64,000 bases of DNA from an uncultured Gemmatimonadaceae bacterium (GCA_963716745.1 OY970320.1:2080001-2144000); one strand, 5' to 3'. Counted from the stretch's first letter, positions 19,481 to 31,344 are shown. The notes: a model not told the origin generated them from the letters alone. Made by a program: numbers and translations.

Positions 19481-19641
19481 GTTGACTCCCGTTCGAATGT
19501 TGCCCTGGGGGTGGACCAAGAAAGTAGCCGGTCCCGGCGCCAGGCGCTCGGCATTCGCGCCGAGAACCGCAGTTTGCGTCCGGAATCGGATAGATTGAAT
19601 ACACGGCACGGCCCAAATTGGCCCCTAACCTGGAGGCCACT

Positions 19642-20755
19642 ATGACATCCGCCGTGCTCGCGATCTTCCCCCCTCGCATCATACCCGACGTGGAATCAGA
19701 CCTGCGCTGGACCGCCGTGATCGCGCGCGATGTCGCCGCCGATGGCGCATTCGTATACGCGGTGCGTTCGACGCACATCTATTGCCGTCCCTCATGCCCG
19801 AGCCGGAAGCCGCGGCGCGAGAACGTCGCGTTCTTCCCGCGCGCCGAAGCCGCCGAGGCGGCCGGCTATCGCGCGTGCCGCCGCTGCCGTCCGGACGAAG
19901 GCGTGCTCAACGAGCTGGAGATCGTCGAGTCGATCTGCCGTGAGATGGAGCGCGACGCGGAGAATACGCCGGAGCTCGCGGAGCTCGCCGCGCGCTCGGG
20001 TCTCGCGCCGCATCGGCTGCAGCGCGCATTCAAGCGCGCCACCGGCATCACGCCGCGCCAATACGCGGAGGCCTGCCGGATGCGCACGCTGCGCGCGAAG
20101 CTCCGTGTCGGCGACGGGATCACGCGCGCGATGTTCGACGCGGGGTTGAGCTCCACCAGCCGGTTGTACGAGCGCGCGCCGCAACAACTCGGGATGACGC
20201 CGGGCAAGTATCGCGCGGGCGCGCCCGGCATGCGGGTCGCCTTCGCGGTGGTGGCGTCGCCACTCGGCCGCCTGCTCGTGGCCGCAACGCCGCGCGGGAT
20301 CTGCGCCGTGAGCCTCGGCTCCGACGACAGCGATCTCGAGCGCGCGCTCGCGCACGAATTCCCCGAGCGCGGAGCGCGTGCGCGATGACAAGGCGCTCGC
20401 GCCTTGGGTGGCCGTGATCCTCAAGCATCTGCGCGGCGAAGAGCCGCACCTCGATCTGCCGCTCGACGTGCGCGCAACGGCATTCCAGCGCCGCGTGTGG
20501 CAGGCGCTGCAGCAGATCCCGTACGGCACCACCCGCACCTACAGCGCGATCGCGAAGGCGATCGGCAAGCCGACGGCCGTTCGCGCCGTGGCTCGGGCGT
20601 GCGCGACGAATCCGGCGTCGCTCGTCATCCCGTGCCACCGCGTGATCCGCGAGGACGGTGCGCTCGGCGGATACCGATGGGGGATCGAGCGGAAGAAACG
20701 GCTGCTGGAGCAAGAGAGCATCGTGCAGCGTGCATCGGGCATCGAACGGACATGA
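19642..20755 (+). CDS. ada: Bifunctional Ada regulator / O6-methylguanine methyltransferase; frameshift near 20370
   Basis: YCRPSC, RACRRC Zn motifs; AraC HTH; IPCHRV. Confidence 0.92.
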
Positions 20756-20794
20756 ACATCCAGTGCAGTCACGATGGCCGAGGCACGATGAACG

Positions 20795-21489
20795 ATGCAC
20801 GCTGACGCCGAGACCCACCTCAAGGAGAGCGATCCGGTACTGCGACGGATCATCGAGCAGGTGGGCCCGTGCACGCTCGAGCCGCACCGGGAATCGACGT
20901 ACTTCCAGTATCTGCTGCGCAGCATCGTCTTCCAGCAGCTCGCGGGCGCGGCGGCGCGCACGATCCACGATCGCGTGATCGCGATCTATGACGGCCGGGC
21001 GCCTGAACCCGAGGACGTGCTCAAGACGCCGCGTGCGAAAGCTGCGCGCCGCTGGGCTCTCGACGCAGAAGGCGAGCTACATTGTGGACCTCGCGCGCCG
21101 CGCCGCGAGCGGCGAGCTGCCGCTGCACACGATGGATTCGCTGACGGATGACGAGGCGATGGCGGCGCTGGTGCAGGTGAAGGGGATCGGGCCGTGGACG
21201 GCGCAAATGTTCCTGATGTTCCGGCTCGGCCGGCCCGACATCCTGCCCGATCTCGATTACGGCGTGAAGCTCGCGATGCGGGTCGCGTACCGCATGCGCA
21301 AGATGCCGAACGCGCGACGCATGCACGCGATCGGTGCCGCCTGGGCACCGCACCGCACCGTGGCCACCTGGTATCTCTGGCGCAGTCTGGATCTGCCCGG
21401 CACGCGCCCGAAGCGGAAGACGGCGAAGAAGCGGCCGAAGGCGAAGAGCGGTCCGCTCGGCGCTCGGCTCCAAGAGGCGGCGAAAGTAG
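20795..21489 (+). CDS. alkA: DNA-3-methyladenine glycosylase II (HhH-GPD); frameshifted
   Basis: SIVFQQL; VKGIGPWTAQM; D-containing HhH-GPD; probable TAG at 21487. Confidence 0.8.
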
Positions 21490-22657
21490 TGTCCGTCCCC
21501 GAGTCCCGAGTCCCGAGTCCCGCATACTTCGTCATCACCGCCCCCGGTTTAGAGGCGATCACCGCCGCCGAGATGACCGCACTGGGTCTGGAGCCCGGGG
21601 CCATCGAGCCCGGCGGCATCAGCTTCGACGGACCGGCGGGCGCGCTCTACCGCGCGAACCTCCATTCTGCGCACCGCGACGCGCGTGATCGCGCGCGTCG
21701 GTGAGTTCGAGGCGCGCCACTTCGCCGATCTCGAGCGCCATGCCAAGGCGCAGCCGTGGTCACGGTGGCTGAGCGCCGCACGCCCCGTGCGGCTGCGCGT
21801 CACGTGCAAGAAGTCGAAGCTCTACCACAGCGGCGCCGTCGCGGAGCGCATCACGACCGCGATCGCGCATGCGCTGGGCCGCGCGCCCGAGACGGCGGGC
21901 GCGAGCGCCGGCGATGATGACGACAGCGGCGATGCGCAGCTCGTGATCGTGCGGCTCCTGCACGATCATTGCACGGTGAGCATGGACAGTTCGGGCGCAC
22001 TGCTGCATCGGCGCGGGTACCGGCTCGCCACGGCGAAGGCGCCGATGCGCGAGACGCTGGCCGCGGCGCTGTTGGCGGCGAGCGGGTGGCCAGGCGACGC
22101 GCCGTTGGTTGATCCGATGTGCGGCTCAGGGACGATCGCGATCGAGGCGGCCATGCTCGCCCGGCGGATGGCGCCGGGCGCCCGCCGTGATTTCGCGTTC
22201 ATGCATTGGCCGGCGTTCGACGCGGCGCTGTGGAAGCGCATGCTCGACAAGGCGCGCGACCGCGAACTCCCGCGCGCGTCCGCTCCCATTCTCGCGTCCG
22301 ATCGCGATGCCGGAGCCATCGCGGCGGCAGAGGCCAACGCCGAGCGTGCGGGCGTTGCCAGCGACGTGCAGATCACGCGCACGGCGCTTTCGGGGATCGT
22401 GCCGCCGGCCTCGGCGCGAGGGTGGCTGATCACCAATCCGCCCTATGGCGTGCGCGTGGGCGACCGCAAGGCGCTGCGCGACCTGTACGCGCAACTCGGG
22501 AATGTCGCGCGGCGATCGTGCGCCGGTTGGACGCATCGCCCTGCTCTCGGCCAGCGTGGAGCTCGAGCGTCAGTTGCAGCTGCCGATGACCGTCGCCGTG
22601 AAGACGCGGAACGGCGGCGTACCAGTGCGGATCGTGACAGGGCAGATACCGGCCTGA
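21489..22657 (+). CDS. THUMP-domain class I SAM RNA methyltransferase (RlmL-like); frameshifted
   Basis: ITAPGLE; DSSG..LHRRGYR; DPMCGSGT; TNPPYG. Confidence 0.85.
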
Positions 22658-22690
22658 TCCCTTCCCACAACAGCCGGTCGATTTGTCCTA

Positions 22691-22719
22691 TAGACGTGCG
22701 CGACCGGTCGTTGTATGCT
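22691..22719 (+). promoter_or_regulatory. Putative sigma70-type promoter for the peptide operon
   Basis: TAGACG-N17-TATGCT with palindrome CGACCGGTCG in the spacer. Confidence 0.45.
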
Positions 22720-22765
22720 CCCTATCCCAACCGGTCAAAAGAACCCGTCCTGCCGGTCAAAAAGC

Positions 22766-22948
22766 ATGCCCTTCGTAGAAGGCACTCCTCCGAGCGAGCA
22801 GTCTCCCGCCGCATCACCGGCGTCGCCGAAGCGCGCATGGACTCCGCCGCGCTGCGAGGAATTGCCGCCGCTCACTGACCTCACCATGCAGCAGGGTTCC
22901 GGCATTCACGGCGGTGGGGGCGGAGGCGGCACGGTCTTTCCGTTCTAG
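22766..22948 (+). CDS. Putative RiPP precursor peptide (60 aa)
   Basis: KRAWTPPRCEELPPLTDLTM leader-like segment followed by QQGSGIHG7TVFPF; heads the rSAM/PqqD operon. Confidence 0.65.
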   Translation: MPFVEGTPPSEQSPAASPASPKRAWTPPRCEELPPLTDLTMQQGSGIHGGGGGGGTVFPF

Positions 22949-22978
22949 CGGGCTTCGTTCACGATCACGGCAGGCACT

Positions 22979-25814
22979 ATGACGCACGCGATCCGCCCGG
23001 CACGTCCTGCCCTGAGATTCCTGGTGCCGCTCGCCGGCGTCGCGGCGCTCTTGTACGGTTGCCAGAGATTCGTTGCCCACCGCAGCGAGCAAGCCGCCGG
23101 TGTATCTGGCGCAGGCGGTGCAGTGCACGGTGAGCGTGGCGCAGCAGAGCATGAGCTGCAGTTCGGGCGAGGCGGCGATCGCTTCGTCGCCGGCGCCGGG
23201 CGCTCGAGGCGGCGCGACGCGAGCATGGCGCGCAGCCAGGGGCGTCCGGTCAGCGAGCGCCGCGCTCGTCGGCCAGTCCGCATAAGTTCGTCACGGTCAC
23301 GTCGCAGAATTTCTTTCACGATGTGGCGGGCGACCGGGTCCTCGCCGACGTGAAGGTGCAGAACCTCACCACCGTCGCGATGGGCTCGAAGGACGGCAGC
23401 ACGTACGATGGCACCGGCGTGAACGTGTTCTTCGATCCGCCGCCCACGGCGCCGGTGACGATCGATAATCCCACCGGCACCAACGGCACGTTCCTCGTCT
23501 CGGGCACGACGTACTTCCAGTATCCGCAGCTCGTGCCCGCCAACGGAACCACCGCGCTTCAGTCGTGGGTATTCGGACTCCACGGCCAGGCGTCGTTCGA
23601 TTTCTTCGTGTATCGTGAGCGCGGCGATGCCGACGGATCCGGACACGGTCGTCATCCCGCCGCACGCATTCCCGGGCATCAGTTCCGGATTCGATCAGAT
23701 CTGCGCGATCCGCGCCGGCAGTCAGGCCTATTGCTGGGGAAACGATTCGCTCGGCCAGTTGGGCGACGGGCGCAGTTCGGACCAGTCCGGTGCCGGTCGC
23801 TGCGCTCGGCGGCCACATTTACAGCTCACTCTCCGCGGGTCCGACGCACGGCTGCGGCATTGAGCAGAGCACCCTCGCAGGATTCTGCTGGGGCTACGAC
23901 TCGCTCGGCGCGCTGGGCGATGGCGGCGCGACGACGCAGAGCGCGCCCACCGCCGTGGCCGGGCAGCTCAGTGGCTCTGCGATCGGCGCCGGCGCGAATC
24001 ACAGCTGCGCGATCGAGTCGGGAACGAACAAGGCATACTGCTGGGGCGACAACGCGCATGGTCAGGTGGGCAAGGGATCGTTGGGCGGGAACGTGACGTC
24101 GCCGACCGTCGTTGTCGGCGGGCACCTGTTCGTCACGGTCGTCTCGGGGCACGATCATTCGTGCGCGCTCACCGCCGCCGGCGCCGCATGGTGCTGGGGC
24201 GCGAACGCCAACATGCAGCTTGGCAACAACGGATTCGCCGATGCGTCGACACCGGTGGCCGTCGGCGGCGGCCATACATGGAAGCAGCTCACCGCGGGCG
24301 GAAACCATGCATGCGGCATTGACAACAGCGACGTCGCATGGTGTTGGGGTTCGGATGCGAGCGGCGAGCTCGGCGATGGGAACTTCGCCGACGAGGGACT
24401 CCCGGTCGCGGTCGACCCGACGGACCTCGGCACGGCGAAGATGATCAGCGCCGGCTCGGACTTCACGTGCGCCGTGGACAAGACGGCGAACGCGAATGGG
24501 TGGTGCTGGGGCGACGGCACTAGCGGGCAACTTGGCGACAACAGCCTTTTCGCGGTACCCAATCCGCAGCTCGTGGACGGCGGTCTCAAGTGGAACTCGA
24601 TCTCCGGCGGTGAGCGGCATACGTGCGGCATTGATAACACGTCGCATGGCTATTGCTGGGGCGCGGGCGACGCTGGTCAGATCGGCGACGGAGTGCCCGG
24701 ATCGACGCAAGCGCCGGGTACGCCCGTGAGCGGCGATACGTACACTGCGCTCGCGGCGGGCGGCGACTTCGCGTGTGGCATGAGCGTCGCGAAGCCGGGA
24801 ACCGGCTGGTGCTGGGGCAGCGCGCAGAAGAGCGCGCTTGGCAACGGGTTCCTCATGACGCAGAGCGCGCCGCTTGGCGTGCTGGGCTTCCATCAATTCA
24901 CTCAGCTCGCGACCGGTCAGAATCACAGCTGCGGGATCGATGTCACGGGCGCCGCATGGTGCTGGGGAGAGAATGACGTGCGACGAACTCGGCACCGGCG
25001 ACGAGACATCGCACAGCATCCCGGCGAAGGTCAGCGGCGGGCATCCTCTATTCGCAGATCAGCGCGATGTTCGTGAGACACCTGTGCGCGGGCCGACCGG
25101 AGCGGGCGACCAACCGACATACTGCTGGGGCAGCAACGGTTTCGGCGAGATCGGCGACGGCACGACGACGAACGCTCCATCGCCGACCGCGCCGGCTGGT
25201 CCGGTAACGACGTTCGCTGCGATCTCGGCCGGGCTGCAGCATACCTGCGCCGTCCAGACCGCCGGTGCCGTCTACTGCTGGGGCGACAATTCGAGCGGCC
25301 AGCTTGGCGACGGTACCAATACTCCGCAACTCCAACCGCAATCTCGTCCCGGGCTTCAGCGGCATCCGCGATCGGCGCCGGATTCTTGTTCACATGCGCG
25401 ACCGAGAGCGGCGGCAGGCCACCATCTCTGGTGCTGGGGCAGCAACAGCAACGGACAACTCGGGATCAACAGCTTCGGCGGTACCAGGACCTCGCCGACG
25501 GTGAGTCGGAGCGCGCGTTCATTCTCGCAGGTCACACTGGGCGCATTCCACGCGTGCGCGTTGGAGCAAGGCACCGGCGAATGCCTATTGCTGGGGATCC
25601 AACAACAAGGGACAGTTGGGCAGTCCGGAAGCTTCAATCAGCAAGACCGTACCCACGCTCGTTGCCGGTGCGGTCACGAGCTTCGTGAGGATCTCGGCGG
25701 GTCGGCAGGATCCCGACCGGATCGCCCATCACCTGCGCCTCGACCGCCGCCGGCGCCTCCTATTGCTGGGGTTCGACGTACGGGAATTCGCCCACGCTGG
25801 TCACGCCGCCATGA
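22979..25814 (+). CDS. Large RCC1/BLIP-II repeat lipoprotein; multiply frameshifted
   Basis: Lipobox LLYGC; 14 (Y/W/F)CWG repeats with GQLGDG and G..H.C motifs. Confidence 0.8.
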
Positions 25815-25846
25815 GCGCCGCCACGATCCTCGCGCGCTAGCTGCAT

Positions 25847-26844
25847 ATGCTCCTTGGCTTCGCGGTCACGCGTCACTGTAATCTTCGTTGTCCCCATTGT
25901 ATTCGGGACGACGTCGTGACGGTCGGCGAACTCAGCGCCGCGCTCATCGGCCGCATCACCGGCGAGGCGAAGGCGCTCTTCGGCGAAGTGAGAGTCAGTC
26001 TCACCGGCGGCGAACCCCTCATCCATCGCGACTTCGCCGGCATCGTCGACGGCACTGCGCGAACGCGCGGTGCCCTGGACGATCGTGACGAACGGCTGGC
26101 ACATTGCGCGCGCGCTTCCGGTGCTCGAGATCGCACCCGCCCGCCGCGGTGCGGCTCTCGCTCTCCGGCGCGAACGAAGCTGTGCATGACGCCGAGCGTG
26201 GCGACGGCTCGTTCCGCCGCGTGCTCTTGGCCGCCGCGATCCTCACGAGCCGCCGGATCCCCTTCTCGCTCGGGATCCTCATCGATCGCCGCGACCGCAG
26301 CGATCTGCGCGAGGCCGCGGATCTCGCGGAGTCGCTCGGCGCGATGAGCCTCCAGGTGCTGTTCGCGCAACCGGTGCCCGCGAGCGCCGCACGCGGCTCC
26401 GATCTCGCACCGCGCGACTGGCAGCAGGTGGTGCGCGAGGTGCGCGCATTGAGCACGGAGTCGCACCGGTGCACTGCCGTCTCGCTCGATTTCGGTGCGC
26501 CGCCCTTTCCGGGTGAAGCGCCGCTCACCTGCGACACGTTCACGCACCGCCGGATCTATGTGAATCACAACGGCGAGCTCTGTCTGTGCTGCCAGCTCTC
26601 GGAGTACGGCGAGATCCCGACCGACGTCGTCGCCGATCTGAACGCCGTGCCGCTCGCGGTCGCGTATGGCGCGTACACGCGTCAACTCGCGGAATTGCGC
26701 CGCGCCGCCGAGCCCGAAGCAGGCGATGCGCTCGCCAAGTTCCCGTGCCTTCGGTGCGCGCGGACGTCGGGCAAACTCGATTGGCTCGCGCGGTTCCCGG
26801 AGAGCCCGTGGCACGATGCCCCCGGCGTGCCCGCCCATGCGTAA
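25847..26844 (+). CDS. Radical SAM enzyme with C-terminal SPASM/twitch-like Cys region; frameshifted near 26050-26100
   Basis: CNLRCPHC, LTGGEP, D..RGDGSF, C...IYVNHNGELCLCC...CLRC. Confidence 0.88.
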
Positions 26845-27959
26845 ACTCGCGTTCGCTCTGTTGCTCCCGTTCCTGCTCGCCTCGTCGTGCGACATTCCGG
26901 GGGTCACCGACACGTCGCCGATGATCGATGTCACCGGGCGCACTGAGCGCGGGACCATAGTGGTGCTGCGCCTGCTCGTCGCCGGCTCGCCCGTCGCCGG
27001 CGCTGCATTCTCGGTCCCTCCGGACGGACACGCGTTCGTCCTGAACGAAGACAGCCTCTTCTTGATACAGCCGGGACCCCTCACGATCGATGCGCGCGGG
27101 CTTCTGGGTGGGGACAGCGTGCACGCCACACGCACGATCACGATCTCCGCGGCACCCACGATCGTGTTCGACGGTCTGGTCGCCGGGAATCGCGACATCT
27201 ACTCGGTAGGGCCTCAATGGCAGTGCGCTCGTGCGCCTCACCACCGATCCGGGCGATGATCGCATGCCCACCGCGCTCGGCGCCACGGTGTACTTCATCA
27301 GTTCGCGCAGCGGTACCGCCGAGCTGTTCACCGTTCCACTCGCAGGCGGCGCGGACGCGCCATTGGCCGCGAGCACGCTCGCGGAGAGTCAGCCGGCCGT
27401 CGCGCCGAGTGGTTCGCATCTCGCGTACGTGGGCACGGATTCGTTCCCGCACATCTATGTCGCCGGCCTCAATGGCGGTGCCGTTACTCGATTCGCGGCG
27501 GCCGACGCAGGATTCTCCGGAGCGCTGGAAGCCAGTCCCACCTGGTCGCCCGCAGGCGATCACATCGCCTACACGACCACGCGTGATGGCGCCGCCGGGA
27601 TCTATACCGGCGCGCTCAACGGCGCCGCGGGAAGCGCGACGCAGCTCGTGAGCGGCGCGCACGGGTACGCGAATGTCGACCCGGCGTGGAATCCGAACGG
27701 ACTCAGCGTCGCCTTCGCATCGAATCGTGACGGTCCAACGGATCTCTACTTGATCACCATCGCGTCGGGTACGGTGACGCGCCTGACGACGCGCGGAAAC
27801 GTGGGACAGCCCGCATGGCTCGCCGACGGCCGGCTGATGTTCACCGAATTCATCTCCGGCGCGAACGGGCTGCGCTGGCTCGACCCCGCGGACACGAGCG
27901 TGATCCACGTCATTCCCACCGGCCCGGGATCGGCCGAGCACGCGTCGGCGGTACCATGA
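26837..27959 (+). CDS. TolB-like PD40 beta-propeller lipoprotein; frameshift near 27215
   Basis: Lipobox LASSC; PTWSPAG, PAWNPNG..VAFASNRDG repeats. Confidence 0.8.
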
Positions 27960-28243
27960 GCGCGAGCCCGATACGGCCGCTCCGGCCCGCCGAGAGTGTG
28001 CTCGTCGCGCATCTCGACGGTGAATCGGTGCTGCTCGATCTCGAGAGCAAGCACTACTATCGCTTGAACGAGAGCGGCTCGGCGATCTGGCGCGCGGTTG
28101 AGTCCGGCGCGGAGCCGCACGCGATCGCCGACGCGCTGGTGTCCGCGTTCAATGTCTCGGAACCCGAGGCGCGCGCGGCCGTCGATGGGCTGCTCGCGGA
28201 TCTGAGCGAGAAAGGATTGCTCGTGCCCAAGGCCGCCGTATGA
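27956..28243 (+). CDS. Stand-alone PqqD family / RiPP recognition element
   Basis: LDGESVLLDL....YYRLNESG..IW...L...F.V....A...V..LL..L...GL; 95 aa. Confidence 0.9.
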   Translation: MSASPIRPLRPAESVLVAHLDGESVLLDLESKHYYRLNESGSAIWRAVESGAEPHAIADALVSAFNVSEPEARAAVDGLLADLSEKGLLVPKAAV

Positions 28244-29190
28244 GCCGCCTGCTCTCGGCGACACCGATCGCACTGGAGGCGGACCGCTTCACGGCATCGC
28301 TGATGCGCGAGATGCTCCCCGCTGTGCGCGAAACCGGTGGTCCAGCGATCGCGGGCCGAGTGCGCGCGCTGCGTTCGGCGGCGGACGCTCCCTCCTCGCC
28401 TGAGCGGGCGCCGACGCTGCGCGTGAGCGGCGTCGCGTTCTGGATCGATGCGCCGCCATCGAGCCGCGTCGCATTTCGAAATGTCAGCGGCTCGGTGCAT
28501 GGATCGATCGACCGCAACTCATCGCGCGCGGAGCTGCGCGTATCGCCGCGCATTGCGGATGACGAGCGCATGGATCCGGGAATCGCGTTCGGAGTGGTGG
28601 TGTCACTCCTGGCGGCGCGCTTGGGCCACGCGCTCGTGCACGCCGCCGGCGTGATCGCACCAAGCGGACGCGCCTGGTTGCTGGTTGGCGACTCCCACTC
28701 AGGAAAGTCGACGACCACTGCGACGCTCATCGCTGGCGGATGGGACTATCTCGGCGATGACTCGGTGGTCCTCTCGCTGGCGCGCGGCGACGCGCCCGGT
28801 GCGCGCGTGCATGTCGAAGGCTGGCGCGTGCCGATCCGCCTCGACCACGGCTCGACGGCCGGTGCGGCGCGCGCCGATCGCGTCGAGGTCGACCCGCACG
28901 CGCTCGGCGGCGGACGGTGGCGCGCATCGGCGCCGCTGGGCGGATTGCTCTTCCCGCGCGTGGATCGCGCGGCGCGCACCACGCTCGCGCCGATCGCGCG
29001 CGCCGATGCCTACGCCGCGCTCGTGCGTCAGAGTCCGTGGCTGCTCGCCGATCCTGTGAGTGCGCCGCGCGTGAGCGACCTGCTCTCGGCGGCGAGCGGC
29101 CATTCCGCCGCGCGCCTCACGCTGGGCGCCGATTGCTATGCGGACGCCGCGCGGATGACCGAGGTGCTCGGCGCGCTGACGGGCCTCTAG
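28240..29190 (+). CDS. HPr kinase-related P-loop protein
   Basis: VHAAGV, Walker A GDSHSGKST, YLGDD. Confidence 0.8.
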   Translation: MSRLLSATPIALEADRFTASLMREMLPAVRETGGPAIAGRVRALRSAADAPSSPERAPTLRVSGVAFWIDAPPSSRVAFRNVSGSVHGSIDRNSSRAELRVSPRIADDERMDPGIAFGVVVSLLAARLGHALVHAAGVIAPSGRAWLLVGDSHSGKSTTTATLIAGGWDYLGDDSVVLSLARGDAPGARVHVEGWRVPIRLDHGSTAGAARADRVEVDPHALGGGRWRASAPLGGLLFPRVDRAARTTLAPIARADAYAALVRQSPWLLADPVSAPRVSDLLSAASGHSAARLTLGADCYADAARMTEVLGALTGL

Positions 29191-29540
29191 TCCGGCAGAA
29201 GCATCGAGAGCACCGTGCTCACGATGCTGATCACGATCGAGCCGATCAGCGCCGGCCCGAATCCGGCGACGTGGAAGCCGAGGCCCAGCGAGCTTGAAAG
29301 CGCACTGGTGAGCATCAGCATCAGAGCGTTGATGACGAGCAGGAAGAGGCCGAGCGAGAGCACGACCACGGGCAGGCTGAGAAGGGTGAGGATGGGGCGG
29401 ACGAAGCCGTTCACGATGCCGAACACGAGCGCCACGCCGGCGAGCGCCAGCACGCTGCCGTCCGTCGAGATGCCGGTCACCCAGCGCGACGCGACCCAGA
29501 GCGCCGCCATGGTGATGAGGATACGAATGACGAGCTTCAT
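29187..29540 (-). CDS. YvlD-like 4-TM membrane protein (phage holin family 4)
   Basis: GIVNGFVRPIL..LSLP..V.SLGLF..VINA. Confidence 0.85.
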   Translation of the reverse strand: MKLVIRILITMAALWVASRWVTGISTDGSVLALAGVALVFGIVNGFVRPILTLLSLPVVVLSLGLFLLVINALMLMLTSALSSSLGLGFHVAGFGPALIGSIVISIVSTVLSMLLPD

Positions 29541-29616
29541 GTCGTGCCTCCGAGTGGTGGGCGAACGGCCGCTCTGCTAATCTGCGCGCGGCGCGGCGAT
29601 CCGGCCACTCGCGCGA

Positions 29617-31344
29617 CTACCAGAGCGTGAAGTGCTGATCGAGCGCGGCCGTGGAATTCGCGCCCGCGACGAGAATGAACCGATCGCCATGATCCACGAC
29701 CAGATCGGGCCGCGGCGCGAGCATGTGGTCGCCGCGCAACACGGTGAGGATCGACGTATCGCTGAGCGCGAGGTGCGCGGACGCGTCGCTGAATGTTTGA
29801 CCCACCAGGGCGCTCGCGGGGCGCAGACTGGCCACGACCAGGCGGCGTCCGCCCGGCAGATCCACCGGGATGCCGGCGCGCAGCTGCGACATCAACTTTC
29901 GCTGCTCCTCGGCTGAGTCGTCGCGGAATCCGCGATCCCGCAGGATCTGCAGCGCGATCTCGAGGTGATGTTCATGGTGCGCCGGAGAGTCGGCGCTGCT
30001 CTCCACCTGAGCTTCGTACATGCTGCGGAACTTCACGTGGCGCGAGAGCCTCCGCTGCACGAGATAGCTGAGGATCACGGCAAGCGTGGCCGGCACGAGC
30101 AGCGTGTATCCGCCCGTCATCTCGGTCACCATCATCATCGTCGCGATAGGCACGTGCGCGGCGCCGGCGAAGACGGCGGCCATCCCGACGACGACGAAGG
30201 GCGCCGCCGGAAGATGCGTGATCGCGGCGAATGCCCCGCCGAGCATGGCGCCCGCGAACAGCGTGGGCGCGAACACGCCGCCGGATCCGCCGGAGCCGAC
30301 GCTCAGGCTCATCGCGATCACCTTGGCGAGCACGAGCAGGGCGAGCACACCGAGCGTCAGCTGGCCGTCGATCGCCTGCTGCATCCATCCGTAGCCGCCG
30401 CCGATCACCTTCGGCACGGCCACTGCCAAGAGTCCCATGAGCAGTCCGCCGATCGCCGGCTTGAGGAAGGGCTTCACCGGCAGGCGCTGGAACCACTGAT
30501 GCGTTCCGTAGAAGATCGCGGGCGTGATGGTGGCGAGGACGCCCGCGGCGACGCCGAGCAGGATGTACCAGCCGTGCTCGAGCGTCCCGGGCACCTGGTC
30601 GGCGAGGTCGGAGAACCGGAAGAGCGGCTGCCAGCCGACGACCATCCCATTCACCGCGTACGCGACGATGGCGCCGAGCGCGGTATAGAGCAGGGCGCCG
30701 GGTTCGAACTCCATGTCGGCGTACAGGATCTCGACGGCGAGCAGCGCCGCGCCGATCGGCGAGCGGAAGATCGCGGAGAGCCCCGCCGCCATGCCGACGA
30801 GCAGCAGGATGCGCCGCTCCTCGCCGGTGCGGCCCGTGAGCGTCGCGTATACGGAGCCGACGCCGCCGGTGATGAGCGCCATCGGTCCCTCGCGTCCCGC
30901 CGACCCGCCCGAGCCGATCGTGATGGCCGACGCGATGAGCTTCACGAACGGGATCCGTGCACGCATCTCGCCGTCGGTGCGGTGGAAGGCGCGTATCACC
31001 GCGTCGGTCCCGTGGCCTTCCGCCTCGGGCGCCAGCCGCGCGGCGAGCACGCCGACGATGAGGCCGCCAAGGGCCGTCGAGACCGGAACCAGCCAGAGTC
31101 CGTGCGGGCCGATGATCTCGACCGGCGACCCGCCTTCGTTCGGCAGGCCCGGCGGGTGGTAGCCGGCGATCCCCCAGAGCATCAGCCGGTCCATCAGGCG
31201 GAGGAACGCCGTGAACATCTGCGCAAAAACCGCGCCGGCGACGCCCAGCGCGATCGTGTCGATCAGCAGGCGCCGCGCGCGCGCATCCACGGAGCGGCCG
31301 GGTGCCACGAAGAGCGCGTCGCGCGAGAGGGCGGGGAGGCGCAC
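29617..31344 (-). CDS. ClC chloride channel/antiporter with C-terminal TrkA-C-like domain
   Basis: GHGTD, GSAGREGP, GGVFAP. Confidence 0.9.
   Translation of the reverse strand: MRLPALSRDALFVAPGRSVDARARRLLIDTIALGVAGAVFAQMFTAFLRLMDRLMLWGIAGYHPPGLPNEGGSPVEIIGPHGLWLVPVSTALGGLIVGVLAARLAPEAEGHGTDAVIRAFHRTDGEMRARIPFVKLIASAITIGSGGSAGREGPMALITGGVGSVYATLTGRTGEERRILLLVGMAAGLSAIFRSPIGAALLAVEILYADMEFEPGALLYTALGAIVAYAVNGMVVGWQPLFRFSDLADQVPGTLEHGWYILLGVAAGVLATITPAIFYGTHQWFQRLPVKPFLKPAIGGLLMGLLAVAVPKVIGGGYGWMQQAIDGQLTLGVLALLVLAKVIAMSLSVGSGGSGGVFAPTLFAGAMLGGAFAAITHLPAAPFVVVGMAAVFAGAAHVPIATMMMVTEMTGGYTLLVPATLAVILSYLVQRRLSRHVKFRSMYEAQVESSADSPAHHEHHLEIALQILRDRGFRDDSAEEQRKLMSQLRAGIPVDLPGGRRLVVASLRPASALVGQTFSDASAHLALSDTSILTVLRGDHMLAPRPDLVVDHGDRFILVAGANSTAALDQHFTLW

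Follow-up and report, generated by a model that had tools for sequence, protein, structure and literature searches.

What is made from a small open reading frame (ORF) whose N-terminal part reads as the leader of a lasso peptide precursor, and whose glycine-rich C-terminal part lacks the acidic residue with which a lasso ring is closed? The ORF in question (positions 22766-22948, plus strand) lies in a stretch of 64,000 nucleotides, here called the window, which covers positions 2080001-2144000 of a single 3.29-Mb contig (OY970320.1) in the genome of an uncultured Gemmatimonadaceae bacterium (GCA_963716745.1). Completeness of this genome is rated at 89.8%, the G+C content of the window is 67%, and the closest named relatives of the window are metagenome-assembled genomes (MAGs) labelled uncultured Gemmatimonadaceae. 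The analysis described here suggests that the ORF is probably the precursor of an uncharacterised pathway for a ribosomally made peptide that carries post-translational modifications (RiPP), in which a radical S-adenosylmethionine (SAM) enzyme would be guided by a leader handled as in lasso peptide biosynthesis, and which was seen only in records named Gemmatimonadota.

A glycine-rich peptide with a lasso-type leader

Retranslation of the ORF gave a product of 60 residues, MPFVEGTPPSEQSPAASPASPKRAWTPPRCEELPPLTDLTMQQGSGIHGGGGGGGTVFPF, followed by TAG, in exact agreement with a preliminary description of this DNA. Upstream, at 22715, lies an alternative in-frame ATG; the ATG at 22766 appears to fit the family better, because it leaves 24 residues before the conserved Trp, which is the median for the best 120 of the 1030 family clusters described below. 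A tblastn search found the peptide, 100% identical at the protein level, in two related MAG loci (L009 and L010), and these, together with 24 further genomes of the phylum (see below), supplied the amino-acid conservation that the preliminary description had proposed as a check. All seven variable sites of the ORF among the window, L009 and L010 fall in third codon positions and are synonymous; compared with L009, 6 of the 183 bases of the ORF differ, whereas the 6.7-kb cluster as a whole is 83.6% identical. Because short-read contigs from three other soil runs span the region of the ORF without indels (X1 22500-22976, X2 22721-22988 and X4 22856-23006), the run of GGN codons is no assembly artefact. 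The peptide gene is real and is under purifying selection.

With the core taken to start at Gln42, the leader comprises residues 1-41 (W25xxP28xC30...T40-M41) and the predicted core residues 42-60, QQGSGIHGGGGGGGTVFPF. Trp25 then stands at -17, Pro28 at -14, Cys30 at -12 and Thr40 at -2. The available part of a paper on a phosphorylated lasso peptide (PMC10368454) places a YxxPxL motif at -17 to -12 and a conserved Thr at -2, and the lasso-leader rule that had been applied to this ORF earlier, a (Y/W)xxP motif with a Thr two residues before the core, is matched exactly by the positions of Trp25, Pro28 and Thr40. In a 24-row alignment of the family the W, P, LP, LT and LT elements are invariant, with W, P and T present in 24/24 rows; position -12, which is Cys in the window, is L, I or V in the family.

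The window core was confirmed to contain no Asp, Glu or Cys, and in particular no Asp or Glu at position 7, 8 or 9 with which a macrolactam could be formed. Core statistics were taken over the best 119 family members. The median core length is 19 residues with about 36% Gly, the first residue is Gln in 109/119, the core ends in STVF in 107/119, Asp or Glu occurs at positions 7-9 in 14/119, and Cys in none. Conserved positions are Gly3, Ile6, Gly8 and the (S/T)(T/S)VF tail; other C-termini are TVFPF (window), TVIP, TVFG and TVFT, and in forms fused to a lipoprotein (see below) the Phe is internal. The proposal made earlier that His might be a target of the radical SAM enzyme did not hold up well, since His48 is peculiar to the window lineage and thus a poor candidate.

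A six-frame search of 401 sampled Gemmatimonadota genomes, the host genome (G000) included, found the peptide family in 25 of them (best E ≤ 1.9e-5, the next best match being at 1.7e-3). The matches are short open frames that terminate directly behind ..TVF, and the family consensus, about 60 residues long, is ..(R/K)(R/K)PWxxPx[LIV]xELP(K/R)LTDLTL-QTGxPIGGGGxGGG(S/T)TVF. A profile search of 5.8 billion proteins yielded 1030 metagenome protein clusters of 18-105 aa at E ≤ 1e-3, and no Pfam domain was found in any of them. Among the best 120 of the 1030 clusters all source names are 'hypothetical protein', the organisms named are all Gemmatimonadota or Gemmatimonadetes, and the motif W..P....LP.LT.LT is present in 119. 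When 185,579 species, each represented by a single genome, were scanned with a pattern, 58 peptide loci were confirmed, and their named records are Gemmatimonadota or Longimicrobia save one 'uncultured bacterium' and one 'bacterium HR33'. Within the collection searched, a full-text literature search found no description of the peptide/radical SAM family; the papers matching a gemmatimonad precursor peptide with a radical SAM enzyme concern a DUF692 system and not the present family.

Leader-handling and radical SAM genes around the peptide

Downstream of the peptide gene, and on the same strand, the window encodes a lipoprotein with the signal ..LLYGC (22979..24096), an RCC1-repeat beta-propeller protein (23790..25881, true start uncertain), a radical SAM enzyme of about 332 aa (25847..26844), a PD40 (TolB-like) beta-propeller lipoprotein beginning MRKLAFALLLPFLLASSC.. 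(26837..27959), a 95-aa PqqD-family RiPP recognition element (RRE) of lasso B1 type (27956..28243) and an HprK-related kinase-like protein of 316 aa with the P-loop VGDSHSGKSTT (28240..29190). The preliminary description had placed a radical SAM gene, the PqqD gene at 27956-28243 and the kinase-like gene at 28240-29190 near the peptide, and all of these were borne out, the P-loop of the last being intact. It had named the enzymes and had left out the B2 peptidase and nucleotidyltransferase found in relatives, the usual position of the peptide gene before the radical SAM gene, the tie to lipoproteins, and the assembly errors behind the frameshifts.

Several of these genes are broken in the window: the lipoprotein gene by insertions at about 23066, 23614 and 23778, the RCC1 gene (a single 666-aa ORF at 3567-5567 of L009) by one-base insertions that split it, the radical SAM gene, which is spread over three frames, by extra bases near 26049 and 26131, and the PD40 gene by a one-base insertion near 27208. 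When a 6.7-kb part of the window was aligned with L009 and L010, many private one-base indels appeared in each of the three assemblies, the set in L010 including a one-base insertion inside the peptide ORF. When Logan short-read contigs from four soil runs were mapped onto 22500-29300, the extra bases of the window at 22533, 23066, 23614, 23778, 25339, 25363, 25410, 26129/26131 and 27208 were absent from the contigs; these are the sites of frame changes in the RlmL-like (see below), lipoprotein, RCC1, radical SAM and PD40 genes. The putative insertion near 26049 is not covered by the contigs. Because the one-base insertions of the window are missing from the short-read contigs, the frameshifts are probably consensus or assembly errors and the cluster is probably intact.

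One of these insertions affects the 5' side of the peptide gene, which is overlapped by an ORF of 397 aa in another frame (21685-22878) encoding an RlmL-like methyltransferase, with a Pfam match that ends at residue 283. In L009 the gene is intact (1460-2431), with about 105 nt between its end and the peptide gene, and a short-read contig lacks the base inserted at 22533; the overlap is an artefact of this insertion, and the true end of the RlmL-like gene in the window lies near 22657. Farther upstream (19618-21704) a gene with Ada-type Zn-binding, AraC and methyltransferase parts and one for an HhH-GPD glycosylase continue into the RlmL-like gene with shifting frames, which are probably further assembly indels.

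To describe the gene content of related loci, up to 20 kb around 20 family loci (L049-L068), with 186 ORFs, and the fragment of the host genome carrying a B2-like gene were scanned against Pfam; the ORF caller is crude, and a gene unlisted at a locus may have been missed. The recurrent set consists of the peptide, the radical SAM enzyme (326-347 aa), the PD40 lipoprotein, the PqqD protein (86-116 aa), the HprK-like protein (304-388 aa), an NTP_transf_5 protein, usually on the opposite strand, and sometimes an uncharacterised protein of about 480 aa. A Transglut_core3 protein resembling the lasso B2 peptidase is encoded in L052, L053, L055, L056, L057 and L065. No Asn_synthase domain was found among the 186 ORFs. 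At the family loci a small ORF with a conserved leader and core thus stands beside an RRE-dependent modifying enzyme, as is generally expected of a RiPP precursor. Gene order was counted over 26 distinct peptide loci outside the window lineage. In 14 of these, 9-42 nt separate the peptide stop from the start of the radical SAM gene, a lipoprotein gene comes next in 10, one locus (G293) has a peptide-lipoprotein fusion in four tandem copies, and in one the next gene is unidentified. Genome G039 has the order of the window, i.e. peptide, lipoprotein, radical SAM, PD40 and PqqD. In genome G059 the cluster of peptide, radical SAM and B2 genes occurs twice (G059:C8:2399-5203 and G059:C10:837997-842006), with the second radical SAM gene split in two.

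The radical SAM profile (A2) matched 28 of the 401 sampled genomes at E ≤ 1e-30. The family is present in 24 of the 25 genomes with the peptide, the sole miss being G109, and occurs without a clear peptide in 4 of the 376 others (G098, G171, G271 and G259), as divergent copies with the weakest scores; the counts are given without a test, related genomes not being independent. The peptide gene is linked by position and by co-occurrence to the enzymes of the pathway.

The same linkage (24/25 genomes; adjoining genes in 14/26 loci) argues against reading the ORF as an unmodified small protein, or as an upstream leader ORF that regulates the lipoprotein operon and lies close to the enzymes by coincidence. 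What such a reading can draw on is the arrangement in the window, where the peptide stands 28 nt before the start of the lipoprotein gene and below an intergenic region (22658..22765, plus strand) that is strongly conserved in L009 and L010 and contains four CCGGTC repeats. These repeats, found by pattern search at 22674, 22704, 22731 and 22753, account for 4 of the 5 matches in the window; as CCGGTC(R)(W)(W) they extend over 22674-22762 with spacings of 30, 27 and 22 nt, within the 90 nt before the peptide start, and are largely kept in L009 and L010. A family-wide operator was ruled out, the repeats not recurring upstream of the peptide elsewhere (3 matches over 22 other peptide loci). An Rfam scan of 22300-23300 gave nothing at E ≤ 1, a promoter scan upstream of the peptide gene gave no sigma-70-like site, and two terminator-like matches lie on the minus strand inside the start of the ORF. 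Two-part conservation throughout the phylum, with an invariant leader motif and a kept tail, and a leader matching the motif that is read, according to the available parts of the sources, by the type of RRE encoded in the cluster, speak further against a regulatory or unmodified peptide, which we regard as highly improbable.

The PqqD profile matched TbiB1 (5v1u) over its full length with E 7e-23, TfuB1 with 2e-12 and the PqqD of pyrroloquinoline quinone (PQQ) biosynthesis with about 9e-3; scores were below the cut-offs of the NCBIfam exception models (52.6 vs 70 and 49 vs 80). A complex of the window PqqD and the peptide, as proposed in the preliminary description, was predicted with ESMFold2, each partner having its own alignment. 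The score was 0.46, compared to 0.01 for the best of three controls, with at least 89% contact agreement between runs and a partner pLDDT (predicted local distance difference test) of at least 54. The mark for a complex is reached by 116 of 157 solved complexes and by 2 of 215 mismatched pairs, and at scores of 0.60 or lower by only 18 of the 157 and by both passing mismatches. The prediction is thus a weak pass, and it may reflect likeness only, because leader-bound structures of lasso B1 proteins are present in the PDB.

The radical SAM enzyme carries the motif CNLRCPHC and invariant Cys at alignment positions 228, 247/248, 300 and 303 (a C-terminal set of the form C..CC..CxxC in the window). 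PF04055 matches the window fragment with 35.9 and the L009 protein with 67.3, against a gathering score of 29.5, as expected of a member of the superfamily. The nearest solved relatives are PqqE (6c8v, 1.2e-13) and SkfB (2.1e-10), and the alignment with PqqE extends to the start of the auxiliary-cluster domain. No NCBIfam model came near its cut-off, the best being ScmF (80.3 vs 400) and the second the mycofactocin maturase (68.2). The enzyme forms at least 599 clusters, and the source name, where one is given, is 'radical SAM protein' or else 'MoaA/NifB/PqqE/SkfB family radical SAM enzyme'.

Kinship with PqqE and the mycofactocin maturase raises the question whether the peptide gives rise to a small cofactor, in the way that PQQ is derived from PqqA and mycofactocin from MftA; the C-terminal Val-Phe would in that case be modified by the radical SAM enzyme, cut off and decorated. 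PqqE/PqqD and MftC/MftB likewise combine a radical SAM enzyme having a C-terminal auxiliary-cluster domain with a small PqqD-family chaperone and a short precursor. The most conserved part of the core is its C-terminal (S/T)(T/S)VF (STVF at the end in 107/119), which recalls the C-terminal Val-Tyr of MftA. However, the equivalog cut-offs were missed by far (44 vs 381 for TIGR02109, PqqE; 68.2 vs 265 for TIGR03962, MftC), the present enzyme is smaller (333 aa) with an incomplete SPASM-like Cys set, and the RRE is of the lasso B1 and not of the PQQ type; the precursor, its leader and the accessory genes also differ from those of PQQ and mycofactocin. In addition, the Phe is not always C-terminal (TVFPF, TVIP, TVFG, TVFT; internal in the fusions), several precursor copies per genome stand beside lipoprotein genes, and the scanned clusters have no conserved partner oxidoreductase. 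A cofactor precursor therefore seems to us improbable.

The kinase-like proteins keep the P-loop VGD(S/T/A)x(S/A)GK(S/T), and their matches to HprK-related models are weak. According to the available part of PMC8498205, in lasso precursors a Ser is the target of phosphorylation by HPr-kinase homologues, and the phosphate is extended with hexose by a nucleotidyltransferase; in the Bsf system, as described in the available part of PMC10368454, B1 is needed by the kinase as well as by B2. The host genome has a single NTP_transf_5 gene (G000:C1:2052904-2053645), 50 kb upstream of the cluster. The slot that NTP_transf_5 occupies in relatives is taken in the window (29187-31344, minus strand, convergent to the cluster) by a gene for a superfamily-IV holin-like protein with four transmembrane segments and a ClC chloride channel gene with TrkA_C.

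Six B2-like proteins with Transglut_core3, an orphan of the host included, scored 43.8-68.2 bits against the NF033537 cut-off of 33. The host orphan (G000:C1:2965725-2966072; L069 1363-1830) lies 860 kb from the cluster, flanked by genes for a GGDEF membrane protein and a lipoprotein, scores 68.2 bits, and keeps ..NTCL.. and ..AHAW... A second cluster around the orphan B2 gene or around NTP_transf_5 was ruled out, the neighbours being GGDEF, sulfocyanin-like, pyruvate kinase, Ser/Thr kinase and trypsin-like genes. A B2 gene stands within 3 kb of the radical SAM gene in at least 7 genomes (G089, G184, G293, G025, G059 with two clusters, G078 and G102) and far from it in G000, G127 and G134; a B2-like gene occurs somewhere in the genome in 27 of the 28 radical SAM genomes. 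B2-like genes were found in 139 of the 401 sampled genomes (a tally including three genomes flagged unpublished), often several in each, versus 28 of 401 for the radical SAM system, and the phylum may hold many true lasso clusters or other clusters that use B2. It is possible that in the host genome the B2-like peptidase acts in trans.

Other systems combining these protein types are the NCBIfam SynChlorMet cassette (ScmC/D/E/F) and the HPr-rel-A system, which were defined computationally and are themselves uncharacterised; a full-text literature search for 'SynChlorMet' found no paper. Both pair an HprK-like with a PqqD-like protein, the former also with a radical SAM/SPASM enzyme, and their models gave the best or near-best weak matches to the kinase, PqqD and radical SAM proteins described here. 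In contrast to members of these families, the present proteins stayed below the cut-offs of ScmF (80.3 vs 400), ScmD (33.7 vs 100), ScmC (21.4 vs 125), the HPr-rel-A models (TIGR04352/TIGR04353) HprK_rel_A (≤ 37.9 vs 200) and PqqD_rel_X (22.7 vs 35), the P-loop being conserved nonetheless. Judged by model cut-offs, the proteins belong to none of the PQQ, mycofactocin, SynChlorMet and HPr-rel-A families.

The closest resemblance is to lasso pathways with split B1/B2 proteins and tailoring enzymes (paeninodin, pseudomycoidin, Bradymonas Bsf). As far as the available parts of the sources describe them, these have a leader in which positions -17 to -12 carry the aromatic-xxPx(L) motif and position -2 is Thr, and, like the present system, an HPr-kinase homologue and a nucleotidyltransferase, which here is the NTP_transf_5 protein of relatives; also in common are the discrete PqqD-type B1, nearest to TbiB1 and TfuB1, and a B2 above the NCBIfam cut-off, in relatives and as the host orphan. 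Unlike in lasso pathways, neither an Asn-synthetase-like cyclase nor an ABC exporter was seen, a radical SAM enzyme stands beside the precursor instead, and PD40 and other lipoproteins belong to the system. Also unlike lasso peptides, the core starts with Gln, is rich in Gly and rarely has Asp or Glu at positions 7-9. PF00733, the cyclase domain, had no match among the scanned ORFs of the window cluster, and the closest match in the host genome ends 66 kb from the peptide. Since two defining features fail, the cyclase and the acidic ring residue, the product would not be a lasso peptide; the earlier claim that no canonical lasso ring can be formed agrees with this. The system appears lasso-like up to the recognition and removal of the leader and yet yields, by its gene content and core sequence, no lasso peptide.

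The available part of the RRE-Finder paper (PMC7470986) mentions about 300 discrete lasso-type RREs beside radical SAM enzymes, which were counted there as false positives. In general type the present system matches these cases, and that part of the main text contains neither this family, its precursor, the set of B2, kinase and nucleotidyltransferase, nor a case from Gemmatimonadota.

For the RiPP pathway suggested above, the following course is our inference in every respect, from the binding and the sequence of steps to the cut site and the chemistry. The lasso-B1-type PqqD would bind the leader through W(-17)xxP(-14)x[LIV](-12) and present the Gly-rich core to the 333-aa radical SAM enzyme, which would alter the core, most likely at the conserved G-x-x-I-x-G or in the (S/T)(T/S)VF tail. 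The HprK-like kinase, joined in relatives by the NTP_transf_5 protein, may decorate Ser or Thr, as homologues of both enzymes do in phosphorylated lasso peptides, and a lasso-B2-type cysteine peptidase would cut after Thr(-2)-x, between leader and core.

Association with a lipoprotein family

The lipoproteins encoded after 'extra' peptide copies have in common a domain of some 190 residues that directly follows the lipobox Cys (N-domain), with the pattern ..CxAxVxxGxxxC..GGQG..V.L.S.NVSYD..F.ADVTVQNL..Q.LG..DG...GVRVFF..GP... The lipoprotein directly downstream of the window peptide also contains it (match at 23284-23613, E 1.4e-28). The C-terminal parts vary (Big_2, beta-propellers, M8 peptidase, Endonuclease_NS, LTD, PKD), and a look-up of the N-domain in the ESM Atlas gave scores of 0.79 or lower and no named family. 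Genomes G293 and G102 encode the peptide and the lipoprotein signal as one continuous reading frame (..STVF-GLLLAVGLLFGVGAC..), and the fused lipoproteins, of about 800-850 aa, form tandem arrays of four (L056 3376-13538, G293:C77), directly before the radical SAM gene, and of three (L066, G102:C95). Thirty fused clusters, mostly of about 800 aa, came from several public sources. The lipoproteins with and without a fused peptide are homologues (35% identity over 281 aa, E 3e-30).

Among 19 strong N-domain genes of five genomes, 13 have the peptide fused, directly upstream, or in the order peptide, radical SAM, lipoprotein (3/3 in G176, 2/2 in G078, 4/4 in G293, 3/6 in G149 and 1/4 in G000); the host N-domain genes at G000:C1:1598235-1598864, 944753-945421 and 2060160-2060549 stand without a family peptide in their vicinity. 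Both peptides of G078 are linked to lipoproteins, and neither stands beside the radical SAM gene. The 71-aa ORF that separates the two lipoprotein genes in L067 does not belong to the peptide family. That the peptide is joined to the downstream lipoprotein by read-through or frameshift was ruled out: in the window the two genes are in frame across the single TAG, but at other loci the next gene may be in any frame relative to the peptide and brings a start and signal of its own.

These observations bear on another explanation, namely that the system matures or sorts lipoproteins and has no free product, the peptide being a modified partner or an N-terminal extension of the N-domain lipoproteins on which the enzymes act in the cytoplasm, so controlling export, anchoring or activity of the lipoprotein. 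It overlaps with the RiPP reading in that the peptide remains the substrate of the enzymes, and differs in the purpose of the pathway. The lipoprotein gene directly downstream in 10/26 loci, the fusions in G293 and G102 and in the 30 clusters, the homology of fused and unfused forms with a common N-domain that includes the window's own downstream gene, the peptide association of 13/19 N-domain genes, the regular presence of the PD40 lipoprotein and the two lipoprotein-linked peptides of G078 would all be accounted for. Yet the peptide is mostly a separate ORF with its own stop, in variable frame to the next gene, the separate form making up 1030 clusters versus 30 fused ones, and 6 of the 19 N-domain lipoproteins have no peptide nearby. 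A peptide N-terminal to the signal would presumably stay in the cytoplasm and be removed by signal peptidase II, and we know of no lipoprotein maturation mechanism of this kind. On balance this explanation appears unlikely, though clearly less so than a cofactor precursor.

Several of the observations weigh against a RiPP pathway with a free product. Such a product explains neither the lipoprotein genes that follow the peptide in 10/26 loci nor the fusion to a lipoprotein, seen in one genus, and no conserved exporter was found in the scanned clusters. In the window the peptide is 2.9 kb from the radical SAM gene, with the lipoprotein and RCC1 genes between, and the ORF scan found no B2 peptidase and no NTP_transf_5 in the window cluster; the host copies of these stand in contexts unrelated to the cluster. 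The window peptide is itself divergent (Cys at -12, Pro35, Met at -1, Gln for Thr at core position 2, and TVFPF for STVF), the core has neither Cys nor the aromatic-rich motifs used by known radical SAM RiPP enzymes, and the predicted complex with PqqD is only a weak pass. Taking these points into account, we still consider a precursor of a leader-guided radical SAM pathway the probable explanation.

Implications

If the ORF is such a precursor, the lasso module for leader recognition and removal (B1, B2, kinase and nucleotidyltransferase) would be coupled to radical SAM chemistry on a Cys-free, Gly-rich core. A RiPP class of this type would be new, and the soil phylum it comes from has been little studied; upwards of 1000 precursor variants from nature and a small set of enzymes suited to heterologous work would come with it. 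The roughly 300 lasso-type RREs beside radical SAM enzymes that, in the available part of PMC7470986, count as false positives of RRE-Finder would also acquire a meaning.

The repeated pairing, and in some cases fusion, with one lipoprotein family hints at a role beyond that of a secreted natural product. It is conceivable, although we put it forward as a rather doubtful proposal, that the Gly-rich peptide, to which a lasso-type leader would guide the radical SAM enzyme together with the kinase and nucleotidyltransferase, has its purpose in exported lipoproteins of a dedicated family: as a modified partner, a tag or an extension of the signal peptide it may govern how these mature, where they are sorted or how active they are. 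This would amount to a partnership between a RiPP and a lipoprotein, in place of a free product resembling an antibiotic.

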